Both the position numbers and the translations under genes were made by a program. From contig JBEIPA010000013.1 of the NCBI GenBank assembly GCA_040377305.1, forward strand, positions 32,001-96,000: DNA of 64,000 bases. The letters run 5' to 3'. The DNA is from Flavobacteriales bacterium. GTDB lineage: Bacteria; Bacteroidota; Bacteroidia; Palsa-965. How positions within the stretch are numbered: the first letter of the stretch is position 1; each line of letters begins with the position of its first letter. Of the stretch, positions 2,073 through 49,371 are shown one piece after another. The notes beneath the pieces are model-generated. The model was not told the origin of the DNA. It saw only the letters and a program-made list of their open reading frames with translations, and made no database searches.

Positions 2073-3769
2073 GAAAGTTCGCGTTCATATTTCTTCTGCT
2101 TTGCTCACTGAGCGGATTTCTTAACGGTCAAAATCTCGAGAAGATCGGCAAGAAGGATATGATCACCATCGGCGGATCGATGAATCTCAATTCGATTTTC
2201 TACGACGCACACGGATTCATTCCTCGTCGCGATCCGTACACGTGGTATTTCAACGGTTCGCTGAACGTAACCATTCTGGATGTATCGTTGCCGTTCACGT
2301 ACAGCTACTCGAATCAGCACGGAACGTACACGCAACCGTTCAACATGCAAAGTTGTTCTCCGAAATACAAGTGGGCACAGGCGCATATAGGAACAACAGC
2401 ACTCACCTATTCGCCATACACATTGGGCGGACATCTGTTCACCGGTGGCGCACTCGAGCTTACACCCAACGGATTTTTCATTGGAGGAATGTACGGTCGA
2501 TTCCGAAAAGCGGTGGCTGACGATCCCATTTCGCAAACTGCAGAACAGGTCAGCTACAAGCGAATGGGTTATGCATTTAAAGCAGGTTACGAGAACAACG
2601 GACAAGCATTAACTGTTTCGTATTTCCATGCAGCCGATGATCCGAACTCTTTGATGTTTGTTCCGCCCGACGCGAATCTTTCTCCGATGGAAAATTCAGC
2701 AATCGGAATCAGCGGAAAAACTACACTGTGGGAAGTGCTGAATGTTACCGGGGAATTTGCCGCATCCGGATTAACACGAAACATTTTCTCCGAAGATGAA
2801 ACCGCCGATTATAACGGCTGGGAGAAATGGCTTGTGCGTACGAAGACGACGACTGAATTTTATCGCGCATGGAAAGCATCCGTTGGTTATAGCACGAAAT
2901 TGTTTTCCATTTCCGTACTGCACGAGCATGTAGATCCCGGCTATCAGACATTAGGCGCGTATTTCTTCAACAATGATCTTGAGAATTACACCGTTGCGCC
3001 GGCTTTTCGTTTTCTCAAGGGAAAATTGTCGGTGAGTCTGAACACCGGATTCCAGAGGAACAATCTGGCGGGTGATCGTCTAAGCACCACACAGCGTTGG
3101 GTTGGAAGTGCGAATGTTTCATTCAATCCTTCGAAGCACTGGATGATCAGTACGGCGTATTCGAATTTCTCGTCGTACACACGCAATCGTCCGAATGCAG
3201 ATCCATTCTGGACTCCTTCGCCGGCAGATACACTGAGCTTTTACCAAATTGCACAACAAGGAAACGCAACGGTGAGTTACAACTTCGGTGAGAAAATCAC
3301 GAAGCAAACGTTTGCGATCATCGGGTCGTATCAAGTCACCGGACAACAACAGTCTGGCGACCTCCTGCCTTCCACAAAAATTCTGAATGGTAATTTCACA
3401 TGGAATGTTTCCTGGATCAAATCGAAGTGGTCTGTAACTACACTCGCGAATTATAATCAGGCAGATGCCGGAATTATTTTCACGCAGCAGTTTGGTCCCG
3501 GACTTCAGCTTGGAAAAGCGTTCATGCAAAATCGATTGCGTTTTTCCGGAGGTGGAGTGTATAATCGCTCCATGGCCAATTCCGTTTTGCTCAATCACGT
3601 GATAAGCTATCGCGCTCTATTTTCGTTCACACCCAAAGTGAAAAACGAAAAGTTGGGTCGACCATCTCTGAGTGCGAACGCAGTTTACGTGAATAAACTT
3701 CCGGTGGTGGAAGGGTTGGAGGCGACGGGGGAGTTGACTGTTACGGTGAATGTTGGGTATTCTTTCTGA
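2069..3769 (+). CDS. Putative outer-membrane beta-barrel protein
   Basis: Signal peptide, amphipathic beta-strand pattern, C-terminal VGYSF; ATGA overlap with upstream T9SS cargo gene. Confidence 0.75.
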   Translation: MRKFAFIFLLLCSLSGFLNGQNLEKIGKKDMITIGGSMNLNSIFYDAHGFIPRRDPYTWYFNGSLNVTILDVSLPFTYSYSNQHGTYTQPFNMQSCSPKYKWAQAHIGTTALTYSPYTLGGHLFTGGALELTPNGFFIGGMYGRFRKAVADDPISQTAEQVSYKRMGYAFKAGYENNGQALTVSYFHAADDPNSLMFVPPDANLSPMENSAIGISGKTTLWEVLNVTGEFAASGLTRNIFSEDETADYNGWEKWLVRTKTTTEFYRAWKASVGYSTKLFSISVLHEHVDPGYQTLGAYFFNNDLENYTVAPAFRFLKGKLSVSLNTGFQRNNLAGDRLSTTQRWVGSANVSFNPSKHWMISTAYSNFSSYTRNRPNADPFWTPSPADTLSFYQIAQQGNATVSYNFGEKITKQTFAIIGSYQVTGQQQSGDLLPSTKILNGNFTWNVSWIKSKWSVTTLANYNQADAGIIFTQQFGPGLQLGKAFMQNRLRFSGGGVYNRSMANSVLLNHVISYRALFSFTPKVKNEKLGRPSLSANAVYVNKLPVVEGLEATGELTVTVNVGYSF

Positions 3770-39923: not shown

Positions 39924-40241
39924 GTGAAACGACAAGCACTTTTATTGCCATCCGCAAAAAATATTCTCAGCGAAATGGGAGAGAACCTTCGTCTCGCACG
40001 TCTGAGAAGAAAGATAAGCGCACAACAAGTAGCGGAACGCGCAAACATCAGCCGATCTACTTTGTGGATGATTGAAAAAGGTTCTCCGGCTGTTGCAATG
40101 GGTGCGTACATGCAGGTTTTATTTGTGCTTGGGCTGGAAAATGATCTCGGCAAAGTTGCGGCAGATGACGTGCTCGGAAAGAAGCTTCAGGATCTGGAGT
40201 TAATGCCAAAAGAGCGAGCACCTAAACGTCCGAAGGAATGA
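39924..40241 (+). CDS. XRE-family HTH protein, HipB-like antitoxin
   Basis: LRLARLRR..SAQQVAERANISRSTL..IEKG; ATGA overlap with HipA-like gene. Confidence 0.88.
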   Translation: MKRQALLLPSAKNILSEMGENLRLARLRRKISAQQVAERANISRSTLWMIEKGSPAVAMGAYMQVLFVLGLENDLGKVAADDVLGKKLQDLELMPKERAPKRPKE

Positions 40242-41479
40242 ATCCGATTGAAGTTTGGTCGCAATGGGTGGGAATGAATGAAGCAGCACGCGTTGGGCTT
40301 ATTCATGCAGGAGAATCGCGCGGACAAGAAATACTTTCGTTTGAATACGATGCAAAGTGGATGAAGACACGTCATCACGTGCTTGATCCTTATTTGCAGT
40401 ATTATTCCGGGAAATTTTTTCCGCGCAGCGGTTCTGAAAGCTTTGGTTTGTTTCTCGATTCTTCTCCTGGAGATTGGGGACGCATGCTGCACAACAAATA
40501 CGAACAAGTGCTCGCGCGAAAAGAGAAACGCGAAGTAAGTAAGCTGCATGCATCCGGTTTTCTTGTGCGTGTATTCGATTACTATCGTCAGGGTGCATTG
40601 CGTTTCAGGTTTAACGCAAATGAAGAATTCGTAACGAGTGATGAACAATTCTTCCTGCCGACGTTTGCTTCGCTGAAAGAACTCGAACGTGCTAGTGTAA
40701 TTTGCAGCAACGAGCACGTCAATGACAAAGATTTTCCGACTGCAATAGAAGCACTTATTCATCCCGGCGGCGCGCTGGGAGGGAAGCGTCCGAAAGTAAA
40801 TGTGATTGACGACGAGTGGCAAATGTGGATGGCAAAATTCCCATCACCGCAAGATCAGTCTGACATTGGCGGTTGGGAATTTGTGGCACACACCTTGGCT
40901 GGACTCGCAGGAATAAATACGAGTTCAGTACTGCTGAAAAAATCGAACGCTCATCATCACACTTTTCTTTCGCAACGTTTCGATCGAAATCTGAAAGGAG
41001 AACGAATTCATTTTGCATCGGCCATGACTATGTTGGGTTATGCCAATGAAAATGATTCGCTGCAACGCGTAAGTTATCTCAACATGGCAGAGTTTCTCAT
41101 GCGGCATGGTTCAGATGTAAATCGCGATCTGGAAGAGTTGTGGAGAAGAATTGTGTTCAACATTGCAATCAGAAACACGGATGATCATTTACGTAATCAC
41201 GGTTTCTTGCTCAACGATCGTGGTTGGGAACTGTCACCTGCATTTGATCTGAATCCAACGGGTGGAGATTCACTTTCACTCAACATTTCGGAGAGCGACA
41301 GTTCATGCGATTTCGAACTCGCGATGCGTGTGGCGCCTTATTTCCGGATCAGCGACGCGCGTGCGAAGAGCATTATGCAGATTGTGAAAGTTGCAGTGGG
41401 GCAGTGGAGAAAAGTTGCGTCCGATGCCGGCCTTACAAAAGCCGAGATCGAACGCATGAGTAGTTCTTTTGAAAAGTAA
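40238..41479 (+). CDS. hipA: HipA-family kinase toxin
   Basis: LGGKRPK, AKFP, RFDR, NTDDHLRNHGF, LSPAFDLNP. Confidence 0.9.
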   Translation: MNPIEVWSQWVGMNEAARVGLIHAGESRGQEILSFEYDAKWMKTRHHVLDPYLQYYSGKFFPRSGSESFGLFLDSSPGDWGRMLHNKYEQVLARKEKREVSKLHASGFLVRVFDYYRQGALRFRFNANEEFVTSDEQFFLPTFASLKELERASVICSNEHVNDKDFPTAIEALIHPGGALGGKRPKVNVIDDEWQMWMAKFPSPQDQSDIGGWEFVAHTLAGLAGINTSSVLLKKSNAHHHTFLSQRFDRNLKGERIHFASAMTMLGYANENDSLQRVSYLNMAEFLMRHGSDVNRDLEELWRRIVFNIAIRNTDDHLRNHGFLLNDRGWELSPAFDLNPTGGDSLSLNISESDSSCDFELAMRVAPYFRISDARAKSIMQIVKVAVGQWRKVASDAGLTKAEIERMSSSFEK

Positions 41480-43284: not shown

Positions 43285-45204
43285 TCAGATTTCCGCACCC
43301 AGGATGAGAATGTCGTCGGGTTGCTCGAGTTTGTTGCTGTGTTCGCTGATGTACTTGTCGATTTCAGATTGAGATTTCAGGGCTGCCAGTAGATCATACA
43401 CATGACGCTGGTCGGAACCCGGGAGGGAAGTCAACCCATCGCTAAACAGGAATAGCTTATCAGACTTCTGCAGTTCCACAGAATTTCTCGTGAAGGGATT
43501 TACCGTTCCGCTCACCGAACCCGCACGTTGTTCTGCACCACGATATTCAATCACCTGATTTTTGCGCACCAGAATCACCGGCATTCCCGCAGAAGAGAAA
43601 TGCATTTCTGTTTTCTCCTTGTTGAATCTGCAAACAGCAATTTCAATGGTATCAGAAACGAGTGGAGTACTTTCCGCAATGCCGTCGTGTTGCAATGCAC
43701 CGCGCACTTTCATGTTGAGCTCATAAAGAATTTCTTCGGGTGCATGAACTTTGTTCTCAATCACAATTCCGTTGAGGAAAGAAGCTGCCATTACACTCAT
43801 GAATCCGCCAGGCACTCCATGGCCGGAGCAATCGCCAAGCGCAATGAAATAGTCGGATTCGGTTTCTGCAATCCACCAGAAGTCGCCACTAACAATTGAG
43901 CGAGGTCGATTATATAGAAATCCTTTCGGAAAAATGGCCTTCAGCTGGCTTTCGATCGGAGTAACCGCTTCCTGAATTCTTCTTGCGTAGTTAATACTAT
44001 CGGTGATGTCTTTGTTCTTCGATTCTATGATTGCTTTCTGCTGTTCGAGAACAAGTCCTGCTTTCTTCCCCATTTTAATTCGTCCGAACAAAAGAATGGC
44101 AATCACAATGAATCCAACCGATGAAACAATTCCGCCTGCAACATAAATTTTCTGTTGACGATCATCTTCTTCCGCAATGGCAAGTGCCTTCTCCGTTTTT
44201 TCTTTGTCGTAGAGCGTTTCCAGATTCTTGATGTTTTGCTGATTCTTTGTGCTGAGAATACTGTCTTTCAAAGACTGATAGCTCGTATAGTATTCAAGCG
44301 CGAGTTTATCGTTGCCGGATGCTTCATACAACTCAGCAATACGTCGTAGTTGGTTCATGCGCGAATCACGAACATTTAAACGAGTTGAAATGCTCAAAGC
44401 AGAGTCCATGGCGCTTAATGCCGCCGGATAATTTTTCTGAAATTCCCGCAGCTCAGAAAGCGAAAGCCAGAGTGCCATCATGTCATACGGATTCTCTTCG
44501 TTGCGCGCAATCACGAAAGCTGCATTCATCAGTGAATCTGATGTCTTAATATTCCCTTCCGTCGCCAGACAATATGCTGTTCCGGCCATATTTGCAGCGA
44601 TCCAGTGTTTGAGATCATATTTCTCCGCTGCAAGCAGTCCTTCATGGAAATATTCTTTGGCGAGAAGAAAACTATCTACTTCAATGTTGTGGCGACCCAG
44701 AAAATTCGCGATGGGAGCAATTCCGCTCTGGTCGTCTCCTGCGCGATAAAATGCGTAGGCCATGCGTTGGTATTTCAGGCTGAGTTCAAGACTGTCCATC
44801 GATTCGTAGACAAGTGCGAGGTTATGATAGGATCCGCCAACATCACTCGGGTCAGCGTCCGACCCGTCTTTAAGACGTATGGATTGCAGATGCGCATTGA
44901 TGGCTTCCGGATAACGACCCATATCGGCATAAATAGTTCCGGCTACGTTTTGTGCAGCGGCTTCTCCCAATACATTGCCTTGCTCGCGGGCAATGGCAAG
45001 AGCACGATTGACAATCACCAGTCCGGTGTCCAGATCGTGGTAGCTGATGTCCCACGCAAGCGCAGTCAGCGCAACTACAATCTGCGAATCGGATTCGTTC
45101 AGCGTTAACAGCAACTTTGAAAGCGAATCAATGTCCTTCTTGTCCTGTGCCTGCAAGCTTGCGACAGAAAAAATCAGAAGGAATATGTAAATCAGCTTCT
45201 TCAT
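43285..45204 (-). CDS. TPR sensor with divergent PP2C/SpoIIE domain
   Basis: Signal peptide, TPRs, TM; VSGDF, DCSGHG, FSDG, PDD retained; DGMD and DQFGG altered or absent. Confidence 0.88.
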   Translation of the reverse strand: MKKLIYIFLLIFSVASLQAQDKKDIDSLSKLLLTLNESDSQIVVALTALAWDISYHDLDTGLVIVNRALAIAREQGNVLGEAAAQNVAGTIYADMGRYPEAINAHLQSIRLKDGSDADPSDVGGSYHNLALVYESMDSLELSLKYQRMAYAFYRAGDDQSGIAPIANFLGRHNIEVDSFLLAKEYFHEGLLAAEKYDLKHWIAANMAGTAYCLATEGNIKTSDSLMNAAFVIARNEENPYDMMALWLSLSELREFQKNYPAALSAMDSALSISTRLNVRDSRMNQLRRIAELYEASGNDKLALEYYTSYQSLKDSILSTKNQQNIKNLETLYDKEKTEKALAIAEEDDRQQKIYVAGGIVSSVGFIVIAILLFGRIKMGKKAGLVLEQQKAIIESKNKDITDSINYARRIQEAVTPIESQLKAIFPKGFLYNRPRSIVSGDFWWIAETESDYFIALGDCSGHGVPGGFMSVMAASFLNGIVIENKVHAPEEILYELNMKVRGALQHDGIAESTPLVSDTIEIAVCRFNKEKTEMHFSSAGMPVILVRKNQVIEYRGAEQRAGSVSGTVNPFTRNSVELQKSDKLFLFSDGLTSLPGSDQRHVYDLLAALKSQSEIDKYISEHSNKLEQPDDILILGAEI

Positions 45205-45357
45205 ATTCTGATTCCTATTACGAGAACGTCATCGATGCCGACGAAGGCACCGCCTTGTCGGCATCGTGACTTCGAGTGAGCCAAAACAATATTCAGGACG
45301 TTCTCTTGATGTGTTCGCATGGTTATATTCTGATTCCTATTACGAGAACGTCATCGA
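45203..45357. repeat. 33-bp perfect direct repeat (gene 3' end) bracketing an 89-bp structured insert
   Basis: atattctgattcctattacgagaacgtcatcga at 45203-45235 and 45325-45357. Confidence 0.92.
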
Positions 45358-47287
45358 CCTGTTCATGCGAACCTTTCCATTCGCTGAAACGTTCATTGAG
45401 GATGCGTTGCTGTTCGTTGCAACTCTTGTCCGCAACCGTGCAGAGAATATCCCGCAGCTGTTTGTACTTCAGTTTTTTTCCTTGCGGGCCACCAAACTGA
45501 TCGGCATAACCATCGCTGAAGATGTAGATCATGTCGCCCGGTTCGCAATCGTGTTCGAGCAAAGTAAAAGGACGCACATCGCCCACGTATTCTCCAACCG
45601 GAAATTTATCGGCGCGGTATTCAATCACCTGATTTTTCCGGATTACCCAAAGTGGATTCATTGCGCAGGCAAAACGAAGTTTTTTCCTGTCGTTCGAGAA
45701 AGAGCACATCACCATATCCATTCCGTCTTTCAGGCCGGAGTTTTGGCCGCCAGAACGATTAAGAGCGGTGATCACTTTATCGCGTAGTTGGTTGAGAATT
45801 TCAGCCGGAGAAGAAACTTTTCGTTCCGTAATAATTTCGAAAAGAAACACGCTACCAAGCATGCTCATGAATCCACCAGGAACTCCGTGGCCGGTGCTAT
45901 CCGCTCCGGCGAGGAAAAATTCTCCATCCTGTTCGCTGCACCACCAGAAATCGCCGCTCACAATATCTTTCGCACGAGACAACACAAACGCATCAGTGAA
46001 GTTTCGGGTGAGCTGTTCGATCGAAGGTACTACGGCATCCTGAATGCGGCTTGCGTAGTTAATGCTGTCGGTAATGTCCTGATTTTTCTCTTCGATAAGC
46101 TGGCTTTGGCGTGCCGTTTCCTGATTCGTTTCCTTGCGGAATTTGTTTCGCTTGTAAAGCATGACTACAAGAAAAACCAGCACGATGAAAGCGATGATAA
46201 TTGCAATCAGGAACCATTGACGGGTATCAGCTTTACTGCTGAATAGCTCGAGTTGTTGTTTCTGTTTGTCGCTTTCAAACTTTGCTTCAAGATTGCGCTG
46301 GTGATTCAGGACGTCGTCGTTTACAATTGAATCGCGAAGCAGCATGTATTTTTTCAGGTAGAGGAGAGCGCTGTCGTATTGTTGCTCAGTCTGGTAAGCC
46401 GCGGCCAGATTGCTATACAGATCAACCACTTCTTCGCGAACACCAATCTGGCTGAAGATATTGAGGCACTGGTGCATGTATCTGATTGCACTTCTGTTTT
46501 GATTGCGGTACAGAAGAATTGCAATCTGGTTCGACATGATCTGTGCACGGGAGTATTCGTCATCCAGTGTGTCGATCATTTCCCATGCGCGGTTGATGCA
46601 AAAATCAGAGCTGTCTTCGTTGCTCATACGCGCATAACAAACGCCCAAAGCACTCCATGACATCGCCTCCACAATGCTCTCTCCCATTTTTGCTGCAAGC
46701 TGTTGAGATTTTGAGAAAGTAATTTTCGCTTCATCGAAATAGCCGGTGCGCATATACAAGGAGCCGAGGTTGACGTATGCAACGGAAAGTCCCCGTTCAT
46801 AGCCCGCTTGTTCGTAAATGTCAACAGCACGCTGCAAGGTGGAGCTCGTCATTGCCGTATCGCCCATCGATGAATACACGAGCGACATATTCATGTATGC
46901 TGTACCCGTACGACGAGGATCACCAAATTTCTCTGCTTCTTCCAGGCCCTCAATGTGTGCAGCGAGCGCTTCGTCGAACTCACCCATGTCGTTGTAGGTG
47001 GCGCCGAGAGTATTGAGACACATTATTTTTCCCAATGGGTAATTAATTTTCTTTGCAACCTTCAGTCCCTCTTGCGCATATTCAATACCCAGGGTGAGAT
47101 TGTAGTATGCGGTGTCCCACGCAACGCGATTGAAGTAGAGCACTTTTAAGGTGTCATCGGGAAGTGCTTGCAGATCGGCAACTGAACGTTTAGACGGAGC
47201 ATCCACTTTTGGCATTTGTGCACGCACTGGTATTGTTGCAAATAGCAGCAGCGAAAGCAGAATAGAAGCGCGGATGACCTGTGGCAT
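45323..47287 (-). CDS. TPR sensor with PP2C/SpoIIE phosphatase
   Basis: Signal peptide, TPRs, TM; VSGDF, DSTGHG, DGMD, SDGYADQFGG, VDDV. Confidence 0.9.
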   Translation of the reverse strand: MPQVIRASILLSLLLFATIPVRAQMPKVDAPSKRSVADLQALPDDTLKVLYFNRVAWDTAYYNLTLGIEYAQEGLKVAKKINYPLGKIMCLNTLGATYNDMGEFDEALAAHIEGLEEAEKFGDPRRTGTAYMNMSLVYSSMGDTAMTSSTLQRAVDIYEQAGYERGLSVAYVNLGSLYMRTGYFDEAKITFSKSQQLAAKMGESIVEAMSWSALGVCYARMSNEDSSDFCINRAWEMIDTLDDEYSRAQIMSNQIAILLYRNQNRSAIRYMHQCLNIFSQIGVREEVVDLYSNLAAAYQTEQQYDSALLYLKKYMLLRDSIVNDDVLNHQRNLEAKFESDKQKQQLELFSSKADTRQWFLIAIIIAFIVLVFLVVMLYKRNKFRKETNQETARQSQLIEEKNQDITDSINYASRIQDAVVPSIEQLTRNFTDAFVLSRAKDIVSGDFWWCSEQDGEFFLAGADSTGHGVPGGFMSMLGSVFLFEIITERKVSSPAEILNQLRDKVITALNRSGGQNSGLKDGMDMVMCSFSNDRKKLRFACAMNPLWVIRKNQVIEYRADKFPVGEYVGDVRPFTLLEHDCEPGDMIYIFSDGYADQFGGPQGKKLKYKQLRDILCTVADKSCNEQQRILNERFSEWKGSHEQVDDVLVIGIRI

Positions 47288-47316
47288 TCTGTCAAATGTA
47301 CAATTAAGTGTAGCGG

Positions 47317-47462
47317 AATCCCATTACGAGAACGTCATCCATGCTGACGAAGGACAAGCCTTGTCGGCATGGTGACTTCGAGTGAGCAAAATAAGTGTAC
47401 TGGACGCTCTCGTTCAAAGGTTCATTTTTAAAATCTAAATCCCATAACGAGAACGTCATCCA
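47317..47462. repeat. 25-bp direct repeat (1 mismatch; gene 3' end) bracketing a homologous structured insert
   Basis: aatcccat(t/a)acgagaacgtcatcca at 47317-47341 and 47438-47462; insert similar to 45236-45324. Confidence 0.9.
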
Positions 47463-49371
47463 CCTGCTCAAGATCCCCTCTCCATGCGTCAAATTCTTTG
47501 ACCAACCCGGCTTCCTGATTCATCATCGGTTCTTGCGCGTTCTGAAGCATGAATTCCCGCAGGCGTTTCTGCTTGTATTTTTTTCCTTTGTGGCCACCAA
47601 ACTGATCAGCGAATCCATCTGTGCTGAGATAAACACTGTCTCCTTTCTGCAGCGTAATTTCAAATTCGGTGAAAGGATCGGGTTGTGTGGTATGGCTCAA
47701 TCCTACCGGAAATTTATCCGGTCCGTGAATTTGCAGGGTGCCGTCGCGTATGTGTACAAGTGCATTATTCGCACAGGCAAAACGAAGACGACCGGAGTTG
47801 TTCAATGCGCACAACACAACATCCATTCCGTCTCGCGCCTCCTCGTTGCCTTCACGATTAAGCGAACTGATTACGTTGTGACGAACTTCATTGAGTAATT
47901 GAGCCGGACTTGTGTTCTCATGTTCTGCAAGTGCACGGTTGAGCAAGTTGATGTTGAGCAATGACATGAAAGCCCCAGGAACTCCGTGTCCAGTGCAATC
48001 AGCGACTGCGAAATAGAATTCATCCTCATGTTCTGCGCACCACCAGAAATCGCCGGAGACAATATCCTTCGGCTTGTACAGAATAAAATTCTCCGGAAGA
48101 TGCGTGTTCACCATCGTGCGTGAACCCAACAATGCCGTCTGAATTCTTCGCGCGTAGTTGATACTATCGAGGATACTTCTGTTCTGATCTTCGATTGCAT
48201 CGTATGCCTGTTTCAGTTCCACGTTTTTCAGTCGGTGAATTTCCGCTTGCTGATCGGCTTGGGCGGTAGCATGTTTCTGCTGCATTGATTTGATGCGAGT
48301 CGTCACTTCTTCACCAGTGATTTCCGCTTTGATTCGGTAACCGGTTTCGAGGTGGTCGAGGGCATTCTTGAAATCTGCTTTCGCTTTGTACAGTTCTGAC
48401 AGCAATGTGTGACACACGATTATTTTCTGCTTCAAACCGCCTTCAGCGCTGATCATTAATGCATCCTGAAGCAATTGCTCGGCCGGTCCAAAATCCGTTT
48501 GGGCGATATGAATTCTGGCGAGTTCAATTTCAGATGTAATAATCCCCGGCCAGTACTTTAGATTTTTACGGATGTTCAGCGCTTCTTCCAGGGAAAGTTT
48601 GGCTTTGGTGTTGTCTCCGCGTTTGGAGTAGATTACACCAAGATCATTTAGGACACGACTGATCGCAGTCTGGTGCCCGGTGCTCCGATATCCGGTGAGC
48701 GCTTCTTCATTTAATGCAATGGCCTCGTCGAATTCGTTACGCGCAATGTGAATGGATGCTATTCCGGAATTGATGCGTGCCAGTTGGTAATTGAGCATAT
48801 GTTTTGTCGCCACTTCCTTCGCGTGCAAAAAATAGTTCATTGCATTATCGAACTCCTGCATGTCGGAATGAAAAACACCCAACTGAAAATCAGACCACCC
48901 TATACTTTCGGGATCAAATTTCTCTGAAAGCTTGCGGGCTTCATACGCCAGTGCAAATGCTTTTTCACGCTCACCGTTCGACCAGCAGTTGAAAGCAAAC
49001 ATCTGCTTTGCAATAGCCGCTGCGAAAGATCCTGGTGCGAGACTCAGCAGTTGTTCTGCATGTTCAAACTCGGCAATTGCATCTTTCTGCCTGTTCTGCT
49101 GACGGTAATAAAAGGCAATGTAGAGTCGTGCGAAAGCTTCCAGTGTGGGATCATTTTCCCGTTGTCCCTGCGCGGCTAATTCAGAACTGAGTTTGTAGCA
49201 TTCTTCAAAAAGATAATCCGATGCGCTGGTAAGGAAGATAATCTTTATCGCCAGTTTATCTTCTTCCCCGGGGATTTCATCCAGACGATTGTTCAGCCAC
49301 TCTATAGAGAAGTACATCGGTTTGTTTAACCGTACTGCATTTCCCAATGCGCTCTGAACGCGATCGGCCAT
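47428..49371 (-). CDS. Cytoplasmic TPR protein with PP2C/SpoIIE phosphatase
   Basis: No signal peptide or TM evident; TPRs; full PP2C motifs; start overlaps kbl stop (TAATG). Confidence 0.9.
   Translation of the reverse strand: MADRVQSALGNAVRLNKPMYFSIEWLNNRLDEIPGEEDKLAIKIIFLTSASDYLFEECYKLSSELAAQGQRENDPTLEAFARLYIAFYYRQQNRQKDAIAEFEHAEQLLSLAPGSFAAAIAKQMFAFNCWSNGEREKAFALAYEARKLSEKFDPESIGWSDFQLGVFHSDMQEFDNAMNYFLHAKEVATKHMLNYQLARINSGIASIHIARNEFDEAIALNEEALTGYRSTGHQTAISRVLNDLGVIYSKRGDNTKAKLSLEEALNIRKNLKYWPGIITSEIELARIHIAQTDFGPAEQLLQDALMISAEGGLKQKIIVCHTLLSELYKAKADFKNALDHLETGYRIKAEITGEEVTTRIKSMQQKHATAQADQQAEIHRLKNVELKQAYDAIEDQNRSILDSINYARRIQTALLGSRTMVNTHLPENFILYKPKDIVSGDFWWCAEHEDEFYFAVADCTGHGVPGAFMSLLNINLLNRALAEHENTSPAQLLNEVRHNVISSLNREGNEEARDGMDVVLCALNNSGRLRFACANNALVHIRDGTLQIHGPDKFPVGLSHTTQPDPFTEFEITLQKGDSVYLSTDGFADQFGGHKGKKYKQKRLREFMLQNAQEPMMNQEAGLVKEFDAWRGDLEQVDDVLVMGFRF

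Follow-up and report, generated by a model that had tools for sequence, protein, structure and literature searches.

The window analysed here is a 64,000-nucleotide (nt) stretch of a Flavobacteriales genome (G000:C11:32001-96000, where G000 is the genome under study and labels such as G015 or G392 are comparison genomes). Three TPR-SpoIIE/PP2C phosphatase genes form a tandem array on its minus strand, and TPR repeats and a SpoIIE domain were found in two of them, genes A and B. The 3′ ends of these two genes are each followed by a short element with a core hairpin and then by a second, displaced version of the same gene end. This element, its copies elsewhere and its probable mode of spread are the subject of this report. 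The features of the array are as follows.

47428..49371, minus strand: gene B, TPR-SpoIIE/PP2C, 647 amino acids (aa), whose final 11 codons are the incoming end of element B
47428..47460, minus strand: incoming gene end B, DDVLVMGFRF followed by the stop, synonymously recoded relative to the native end (sequence comparison with the empty orthologue)
47400..47427, minus strand: element B, decayed inverted gene-end copy 3′ of the stop, able to pair with the incoming end
47371..47383, minus strand: element B, antisense arm of 13 nt, which pairs with the Asp-Asp region with two bulged bases
47341..47370, minus strand: element B, core hairpin, whose 3′ foot is the right junction
47304..47340, minus strand: displaced native end of gene B, DDVLVMGFRYT followed by the stop
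45323..47287, minus strand: gene A, TPR-SpoIIE/PP2C, 654 aa
45323..45355, minus strand: incoming gene end A, DDVLVIGIRI followed by the stop TAA
45294..45322, minus strand: element A, decayed inverted gene-end copy 3′ of the stop
45265..45277, minus strand: element A, antisense arm of 13 nt
45235..45264, minus strand: element A, core hairpin
45201..45234, minus strand: displaced native end of gene A, closing in ATGA over the next start, like the G015 empty allele
43285..45204, minus strand: third TPR-SpoIIE paralogue, 639 aa, C-terminus PDDILILGAEI, without the element

A sequence-only reading of this DNA had reported the two repeats, and both are real. At site A, positions 45203-45235 and 45325-45357 are identical (33/33) at a spacing of 122 nt; at site B, positions 47317-47341 and 47438-47462 agree at 24 of 25 bases at a spacing of 121 nt. 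Its statements that the two inserts are homologous (80% over 70 nt, E 1e-11; second alignment, 82% over 96 nt) and that the site A end overlaps the next start codon in ATGA also held. The insert region was more stable than shuffled sequences when folded on either strand (z from -2.9 to -4.4). Sequencing contigs of independent runs contain the inserts, excluding an assembly artefact. In run X1, possibly the source sample, the site A insert is a separate 149-nt contig with zero differences and the site B insert lies within one long contig; two contigs of run X3, from a different study, span the site B insert, and run X2, from a third study, holds another copy, C10, with zero differences. The site A insert contig of run X1 (window 45206-45354) had a depth of 9.7 compared with 15.7-16.5 for its flanks, a difference that weakly suggests a mixture of empty and filled alleles or is just noise.

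BLAST of the insert against G000 detected three further copies (C7, C10 and C26), and a survey of all 51 PP2C open reading frames (ORFs) added one on C21. The sequence-only reading had set its proposal against an insert confined to sites A and B, an insert scattered over unrelated sites and an artefact of assembly; what we found were six copies on five contigs, each at the Asp-Asp end of a PP2C gene (6/51 paralogues), with the contigs in agreement. A profile of the core recovered five full matches (its training set) and C7 in part, the next match having an E value of 0.57. The Asp-Asp motif of PP2C includes a metal-binding Asp.

The order of the unit is gene end and stop, spacer, 13-nt arm antisense to the Asp-Asp region, 30-nt core hairpin, and second gene end. 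In A, B, C7 and C26 a second, decayed and inverted gene-end copy follows the stop directly, and C7 has no core. Across five sequences 88.8% of the stem is paired, with two bulges conserved. The bulged hairpin sits subterminally at a fixed distance from the junction, as in substrates of IS200/IS605 or of REP (repetitive extragenic palindromic) elements and their RAYT (REP-associated tyrosine transposase) enzymes. The GTCA...TGAC termini noted at sites A and B are not general, as hairpin feet differ in other lineages. There is no U-tract 3′ of the G000 core, and an Rfam scan gave a single chance match, under threshold and outside the element. A conserved mini-ORF was rejected because not all unit lengths are divisible by three. 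As to a possible replication-strand bias, the counts were 1/6 for carriers and 25/45 for other PP2C genes, and the skews are tiny. An association of carriers with GAC-GTT codons (6/9 versus 0/42) was discarded as circular, since the incoming end itself brings those codons. At a seventh PP2C gene (G000:C50:1830-2210) the end is present three times, with heptamer-repeat units between the copies and no hairpin.

Empty alleles, which the sequence-only reading had suggested looking for, show which end is native. G015, of the same genus, is empty at sites A, B and C10, and site B is empty in G007 as well. The comparison covered A, B, C10 and C26, and the G015 contig ends short of the site in the C26 orthologue. 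Of 33 positions, the orthologous end agreed with the downstream and upstream copy, respectively, at 30 and 29 (A), 28 and 23 (B), and 27 and 24 (C10), and the flank and ATGA overlap of the empty allele go with the downstream copy. The six upstream ends are 77.6% alike compared with 58.8% for other paralogue ends (0/5000 permutations); among the five displaced ends the likeness is 61.7%. Codon positions 1/2/3 take 8/2/22 of the differences between upstream and downstream copies in the five G000 pairs, a third-position excess over the 50% that local duplication and drift would give (p 0.025); in 17 pairs from all genomes the count was 26/7/68, which the search pattern biases. The antisense arm pairs at 13/13 positions with the incoming end but at 8/13 with the displaced end at C26, and at 11/13 versus 5/13 at C21. 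The empty alleles, end similarity, codon-position pattern and arm match therefore indicate that the unit came with its own gene end. As the sequence-only reading had proposed, the native end is the one lying downstream, and that upstream has come in and is at least partly foreign. The six copies and empty orthologues also bear out its picture of a miniature element that restores the gene it enters and sits at the Asp motif conserved in an expanded family of phosphatases, and the element is very probably a mobile unit that replaces gene ends.

In total, 29 loci with double gene ends were collected, five from G000 and 24 from G011, G018, G087, G126, G189, G214, G266, G392 and G440. They belong to four families, with the other carriers in Bacteroidia, and measure 65-235 bp. 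At least two loci occur in 7/9 of the other carriers, and tandem units in G189, G266, G392 and G087. The element is thus an insertion relative to related genomes and has multiple copies per carrier genome. A double-end pattern matched 5/401 genomes of the class; a junction pattern matched 10/400, of which seven are real carriers and three (G063, G230 and G006) were dropped as not being elements; and two single-family searches found carriers in 4/10 and 1/18 genomes. In 28 folded units the hairpin foot mostly ends at or crosses the Asp-Asp codons (GGGAT, GGGGT or GGCAT, then NGAYGAY). This constancy is partly selected for, because the patterns demanded the Asp-Asp region and the junction pattern (10/400 search) also the foot; loci from searches with no foot requirement show the same junction. 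At one G392 locus (L049, G392:C22), a PP2C gene is truncated where the incoming end and about 15 nt of upstream sequence were joined out of frame.

The exact G000-type core occurs in 2/35 family genomes, G000 included. In G015 it lies inside a displaced end of metH (L016), at a site, CAGGT^GGA, that resembles the PP2C target. The core pattern gave six matches in genome contigs: this one is real, L015 is possible (not at a gene-end repeat, as far as checked), and four were judged to be chance, as was the single match in metagenomes. Neither the core nor the junction pattern matched any viral contig. A hairpin-plus-end pattern applied phylum-wide matched 2/401 genomes (L159 and L160), and the L160 match proved to be unrelated coding sequence.

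The right junction is at the hairpin foot, T^NGAYGAY. At C26 and C21, native-type sequence begins with the very first base past the foot, and the junction therefore needs almost no homology. On the other side, the upstream copies at B and C10 are local over the first 23 nt (20-23 nt in the hybrid ends) and foreign only in the tail, and the foreign tail at B nevertheless encodes gene B's own F-R-F. Direct repeats, candidate attL and attR sites, flank the element, but the left boundary is fuzzy; with no enzyme or long copy found, the site-specific recombinase or att-type crossover suggested by the sequence-only reading is conjectural. The paralogue shuffling suggested alongside it applies to the final 11 codons, and none was seen beyond them.

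Our tentative preference is for a gene-end-replacing mini-cassette that is joined at the hairpin foot, likely by an HUH-type nuclease acting in trans. Such a cassette would comprise the final 11 SpoIIE/PP2C codons, the spacer and the bulged hairpin, with no gene of its own, and would be placed before the Asp-Asp codons, the native end being pushed downstream while the carried end keeps the gene whole. It may spread among paralogues and lineages as single-stranded DNA, a hypothetical intermediate. A nuclease, hypothetically of the Y1/RAYT type, would join the foot to the target, and homologous pairing of the resident gene with the carried end, and sometimes with up to about 50 nt of preceding sequence, would resolve the left side. 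This pairing would leave hybrid ends, often a local protein written in different codons, and the antisense arm might serve as a guide. The sharp and nearly homology-free junction, the arm matching its own end, the repeated copies among paralogues of just about 60% likeness and the presence of the core in metH, at a similar site, as well as in PP2C genes are signs of an enzyme that recognizes the hairpin. TnpA-type HUH enzymes are described as binding subterminal hairpins, with cut positions set through base pairing (PMC6006769), and extended pairing as able to narrow IS608 target choice (PMC5934647). An unlikely but bolder version is that the bulged arm is a built-in DNA guide pairing with the Asp-Asp codons of matching paralogues, so that a gene-less circle of 65-120 nt would home through the phosphatase family, served in trans by a nuclease of the host or of REP type, and would swap the catalytic-aspartate segment.

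Several observations weigh against the nuclease-joined cassette. Homologous co-conversion of up to 54 nt blurs the left boundary: the 54 nt 5′ of Asp-Asp are identical between two G392 paralogues, as are 12-14 nt between G440 paralogues, and upstream likeness is slightly higher in carriers than in non-carriers in G266 (0.66/0.68 versus 0.58/0.55) and G000 (0.54 versus 0.47, p 0.03). The first seven residues encoded by both ends are identical in 17/27 loci against a shuffled mean of 2.5, a null that is inflated through mixing of genomes, and such agreement is easier to explain by conversion, or by a donor that was an orthologue, than by a free cassette. Just 5′ of the hairpin, AATCCCG-type copies have bases reminiscent of decayed W-K-G-N codons, and the junction may therefore be inherited from one fusion rather than re-cut. 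The 4/25 stem pairs altered on both sides are a weak count of covariation, as it comes from five related sequences and kinship inflates such counts. Folding energies of native and circle junctions did not differ consistently in 28 units. At B and C10, neither an excised circle nor an excision joint appeared in the contigs, which drop rare forms. The longer copies carrying a recombinase, HUH transposase or nuclease that the sequence-only reading had envisaged were not found: none of the 29 loci, a limited sample, is a cargo-bearing copy or has an integrase beside it. G000 has 10 Y1 genes, yet no PP2C-type core or junction was present at any of 31 Y1 loci in six genomes, three of which carry just a generic ATCCCG..CGGGAT hairpin.

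Other enzyme systems were also considered. G000 has several tyrosine recombinases, one of them at the head of an integron-like array. No TIGR02249 (integron integrase) match above the cut-off was obtained in G000, and the elements lack the attC boxes RYYYAAC and GTTRRRY that the array on C19 has; with the attC geometry lacking, an integron cassette was rejected. The array itself (G000:C19:49999-56688) begins with a 293-aa tyrosine recombinase that scores under the TIGR02249 cut-off; at least eight small ORFs come after it, with repeated attC-like hairpins between them. No RVT_1 match for a reverse transcriptase was detected in the 99.99% complete genome and the repeat differences track codon position rather than adenines, which argues against a diversity-generating retroelement, group II intron or retron. 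A homing-endonuclease element was rejected, as there is no such ORF inside and the motif is usually kept in both copies. None of six short GIY-YIG genes examined stands at a PP2C end; two loci (G000:C21:101-383 and C49:161849-162155) have short GIY-YIG genes between repeated tRNA-like sequences bearing small palindrome insertions.

Duplication of gene ends is a wider habit of G000. Among ORFs of at least 200 aa, 26/3480 had their end repeated within 400 nt compared with 11 controls, and several of these duplications have REP-like hairpins at or near the junction. Distinct REP-like hairpin families accompany duplicated ends on C44, C30, C1, C50, C35, C48, C22, C51, C10 and C14, several of them with a GATCGC-N4-GCGATC hairpin near the junction. 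At G000:C52:172669-173025 (L028), a RAYT-like Y1 gene and REP-like palindromes lie between mutA 3′ ends that are 846 bp apart; the same Y1 gene follows mutA in G015, and the post-mutA sequence differs in four other genomes. Displaced metH 3′ ends are present in G000 (C49 near 45772, L169) and G015 (L016:1745, 3390-3547). In G000 an 18-nt palindrome replaces 3 nt there, and it recurs within REP-like repeats at C19:56801 and C19:151766.

The main rival is spread by recombination only, which we regard as possible. On this view the hairpin became fused once, in an ancestor, to a duplicated PP2C end, and an orthologue or paralogue that already has the insert then serves as template, reaching the cell by transformation, for instance. 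Homology within the gene would anchor the copying on one side and a short microhomology at the displaced end would close it on the other, much as homology-facilitated illegitimate recombination and synthesis-dependent strand annealing proceed, and no dedicated enzyme would be needed. This would account for the co-conversion 5′ of Asp-Asp, the hybrid ends (local first 20-23 nt, foreign tail), the shared first seven residues (17/27 loci), the DN codons common to internal and last units of the G087 array, the failure to find an enzyme and the many other duplicated gene ends in G000. However, the paralogue ends are just about 59-62% alike, the gene bodies are orthologous up to Asp-Asp with no long tract, the bulges are kept, and the native-type first base stands past the foot at C26 and C21; in addition, deletion between direct repeats should outpace insertion if there were no drive. 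Homology-facilitated illegitimate recombination has a homology anchor on one side and a near homology-free joint on the other. The PP2C cassette is alike in both respects but differs in that its joint recurs at one base across lineages and no recipient sequence is deleted.

A quite improbable reading is that the two repeats represent the attL and attR sites left by a tyrosine-integrase element that targeted PP2C ends and has since lost all its genes, similar to the smallest cis-mobilizable elements (microCIMEs). MicroCIMEs without genes, 130-220 bp in size, and tandem accretion at the 3′ ends of genes are on record (PMC7563491), tandem units exist among our loci, and G000 has the tyrosine recombinases mentioned above. 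These points are offset by the lack of a full-length element or integrase beside the 29 loci, of a viral contig with junction or core, and of attC-type R boxes, and by the fuzzy left boundary. A selected host module is very unlikely. The hairpin and second end would work in RNA (3′ end protection, coupling), or the second end would be a spare C-terminus switched in by deletion, with the catalytic Asp sometimes lost (DN, DG, YD). The displaced ends are indeed open and protein-like, with an internal stop in 0/17 pairs, and the site A depth (9.7 against about 16) weakly hints at a mixed population; but the preserved look is explained by recent native status and, outside G000, by a search pattern that also required it. 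Presence is patchy (7 real carriers among 400 genomes) with empty orthologues, unit lengths of 65-235 share no reading frame, no U-tract follows the G000 core, and contigs hold no excision joint at B or C10. An old duplication carried by gene duplication, which the adjacency of paralogues A and B might suggest, or an artefact has next to no probability given six loci on five contigs, empty orthologues, three runs and 24 loci elsewhere.

Gene-restoring insertion is known from elements with their own integrase that occupy a single housekeeping or tRNA gene. Phage 21 and e14, for example, integrate at icd and supply a replacement for its 3′ end. CIMEs and microCIMEs are reported at rpmG, rpsI, fda and rplL (PMC7563491). 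Like these, the PP2C cassette inserts at a gene 3′ end, leaves the gene intact and displaces the native end, and like microCIMEs it has small, gene-less forms and tandem accretion. Unlike them, it has no integrase-bearing parent that we could find, is 65-235 bp in length, targets a paralogue family of about 50 members rather than one housekeeping gene, and has a hairpin and antisense arm at one end with co-conversion on the left. Mobile mitochondrial ORFs in Allomyces atp6 and Glomus atp6, atp9, cox2 and nad3 are another parallel in that a foreign, synonymously diverged C-terminus is in frame and the native one lies downstream; they encode a LAGLIDADG or GIY-YIG endonuclease (PMC3630166), whereas the PP2C cassette encodes nothing. 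A filled PP2C allele holds the target motif twice and is therefore not immune, unlike the mitochondrial case. With IS200/IS605 and REP/RAYT systems the cassette shares a short bulged hairpin with its foot at a fixed junction and possibly base-pair-guided target choice (PMC6006769, PMC3733652, PMC5934647). It differs from both in having no cognate Y1 gene, in carrying coding sequence, in being low-copy and confined to PP2C ends rather than scattered between genes, and in its fuzzy left end. We take some cassette copies in other genomes to resemble CGTC-REP cores. CGTC REPs are described as having no dedicated transposase (PMC3733652), and no circles were found for E. coli REP regions by a library method that would miss single-stranded DNA (bioRxiv 10.1101/2024.07.17.603846).

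A literature search, outside which subscription journals and bioRxiv supplements lay, did not turn up a report of a hairpin cassette at the ends of PP2C genes. Here a gene-less unit of 65-235 bp lands on a protein motif common to dozens of paralogues, and the final codons of these phosphatase genes can be foreign. Because both substrates are known to single-base precision from the empty and filled alleles, the movement of REP-like hairpins, above all of those that lack a known transposase (PMC3733652), becomes testable with short oligonucleotides and a few candidate enzymes.

Elsewhere in the window, positions 39924-41479 hold a small helix-turn-helix gene followed by an ORF resembling HipA kinase, which, by their sequence motifs, are probably a toxin-antitoxin pair.

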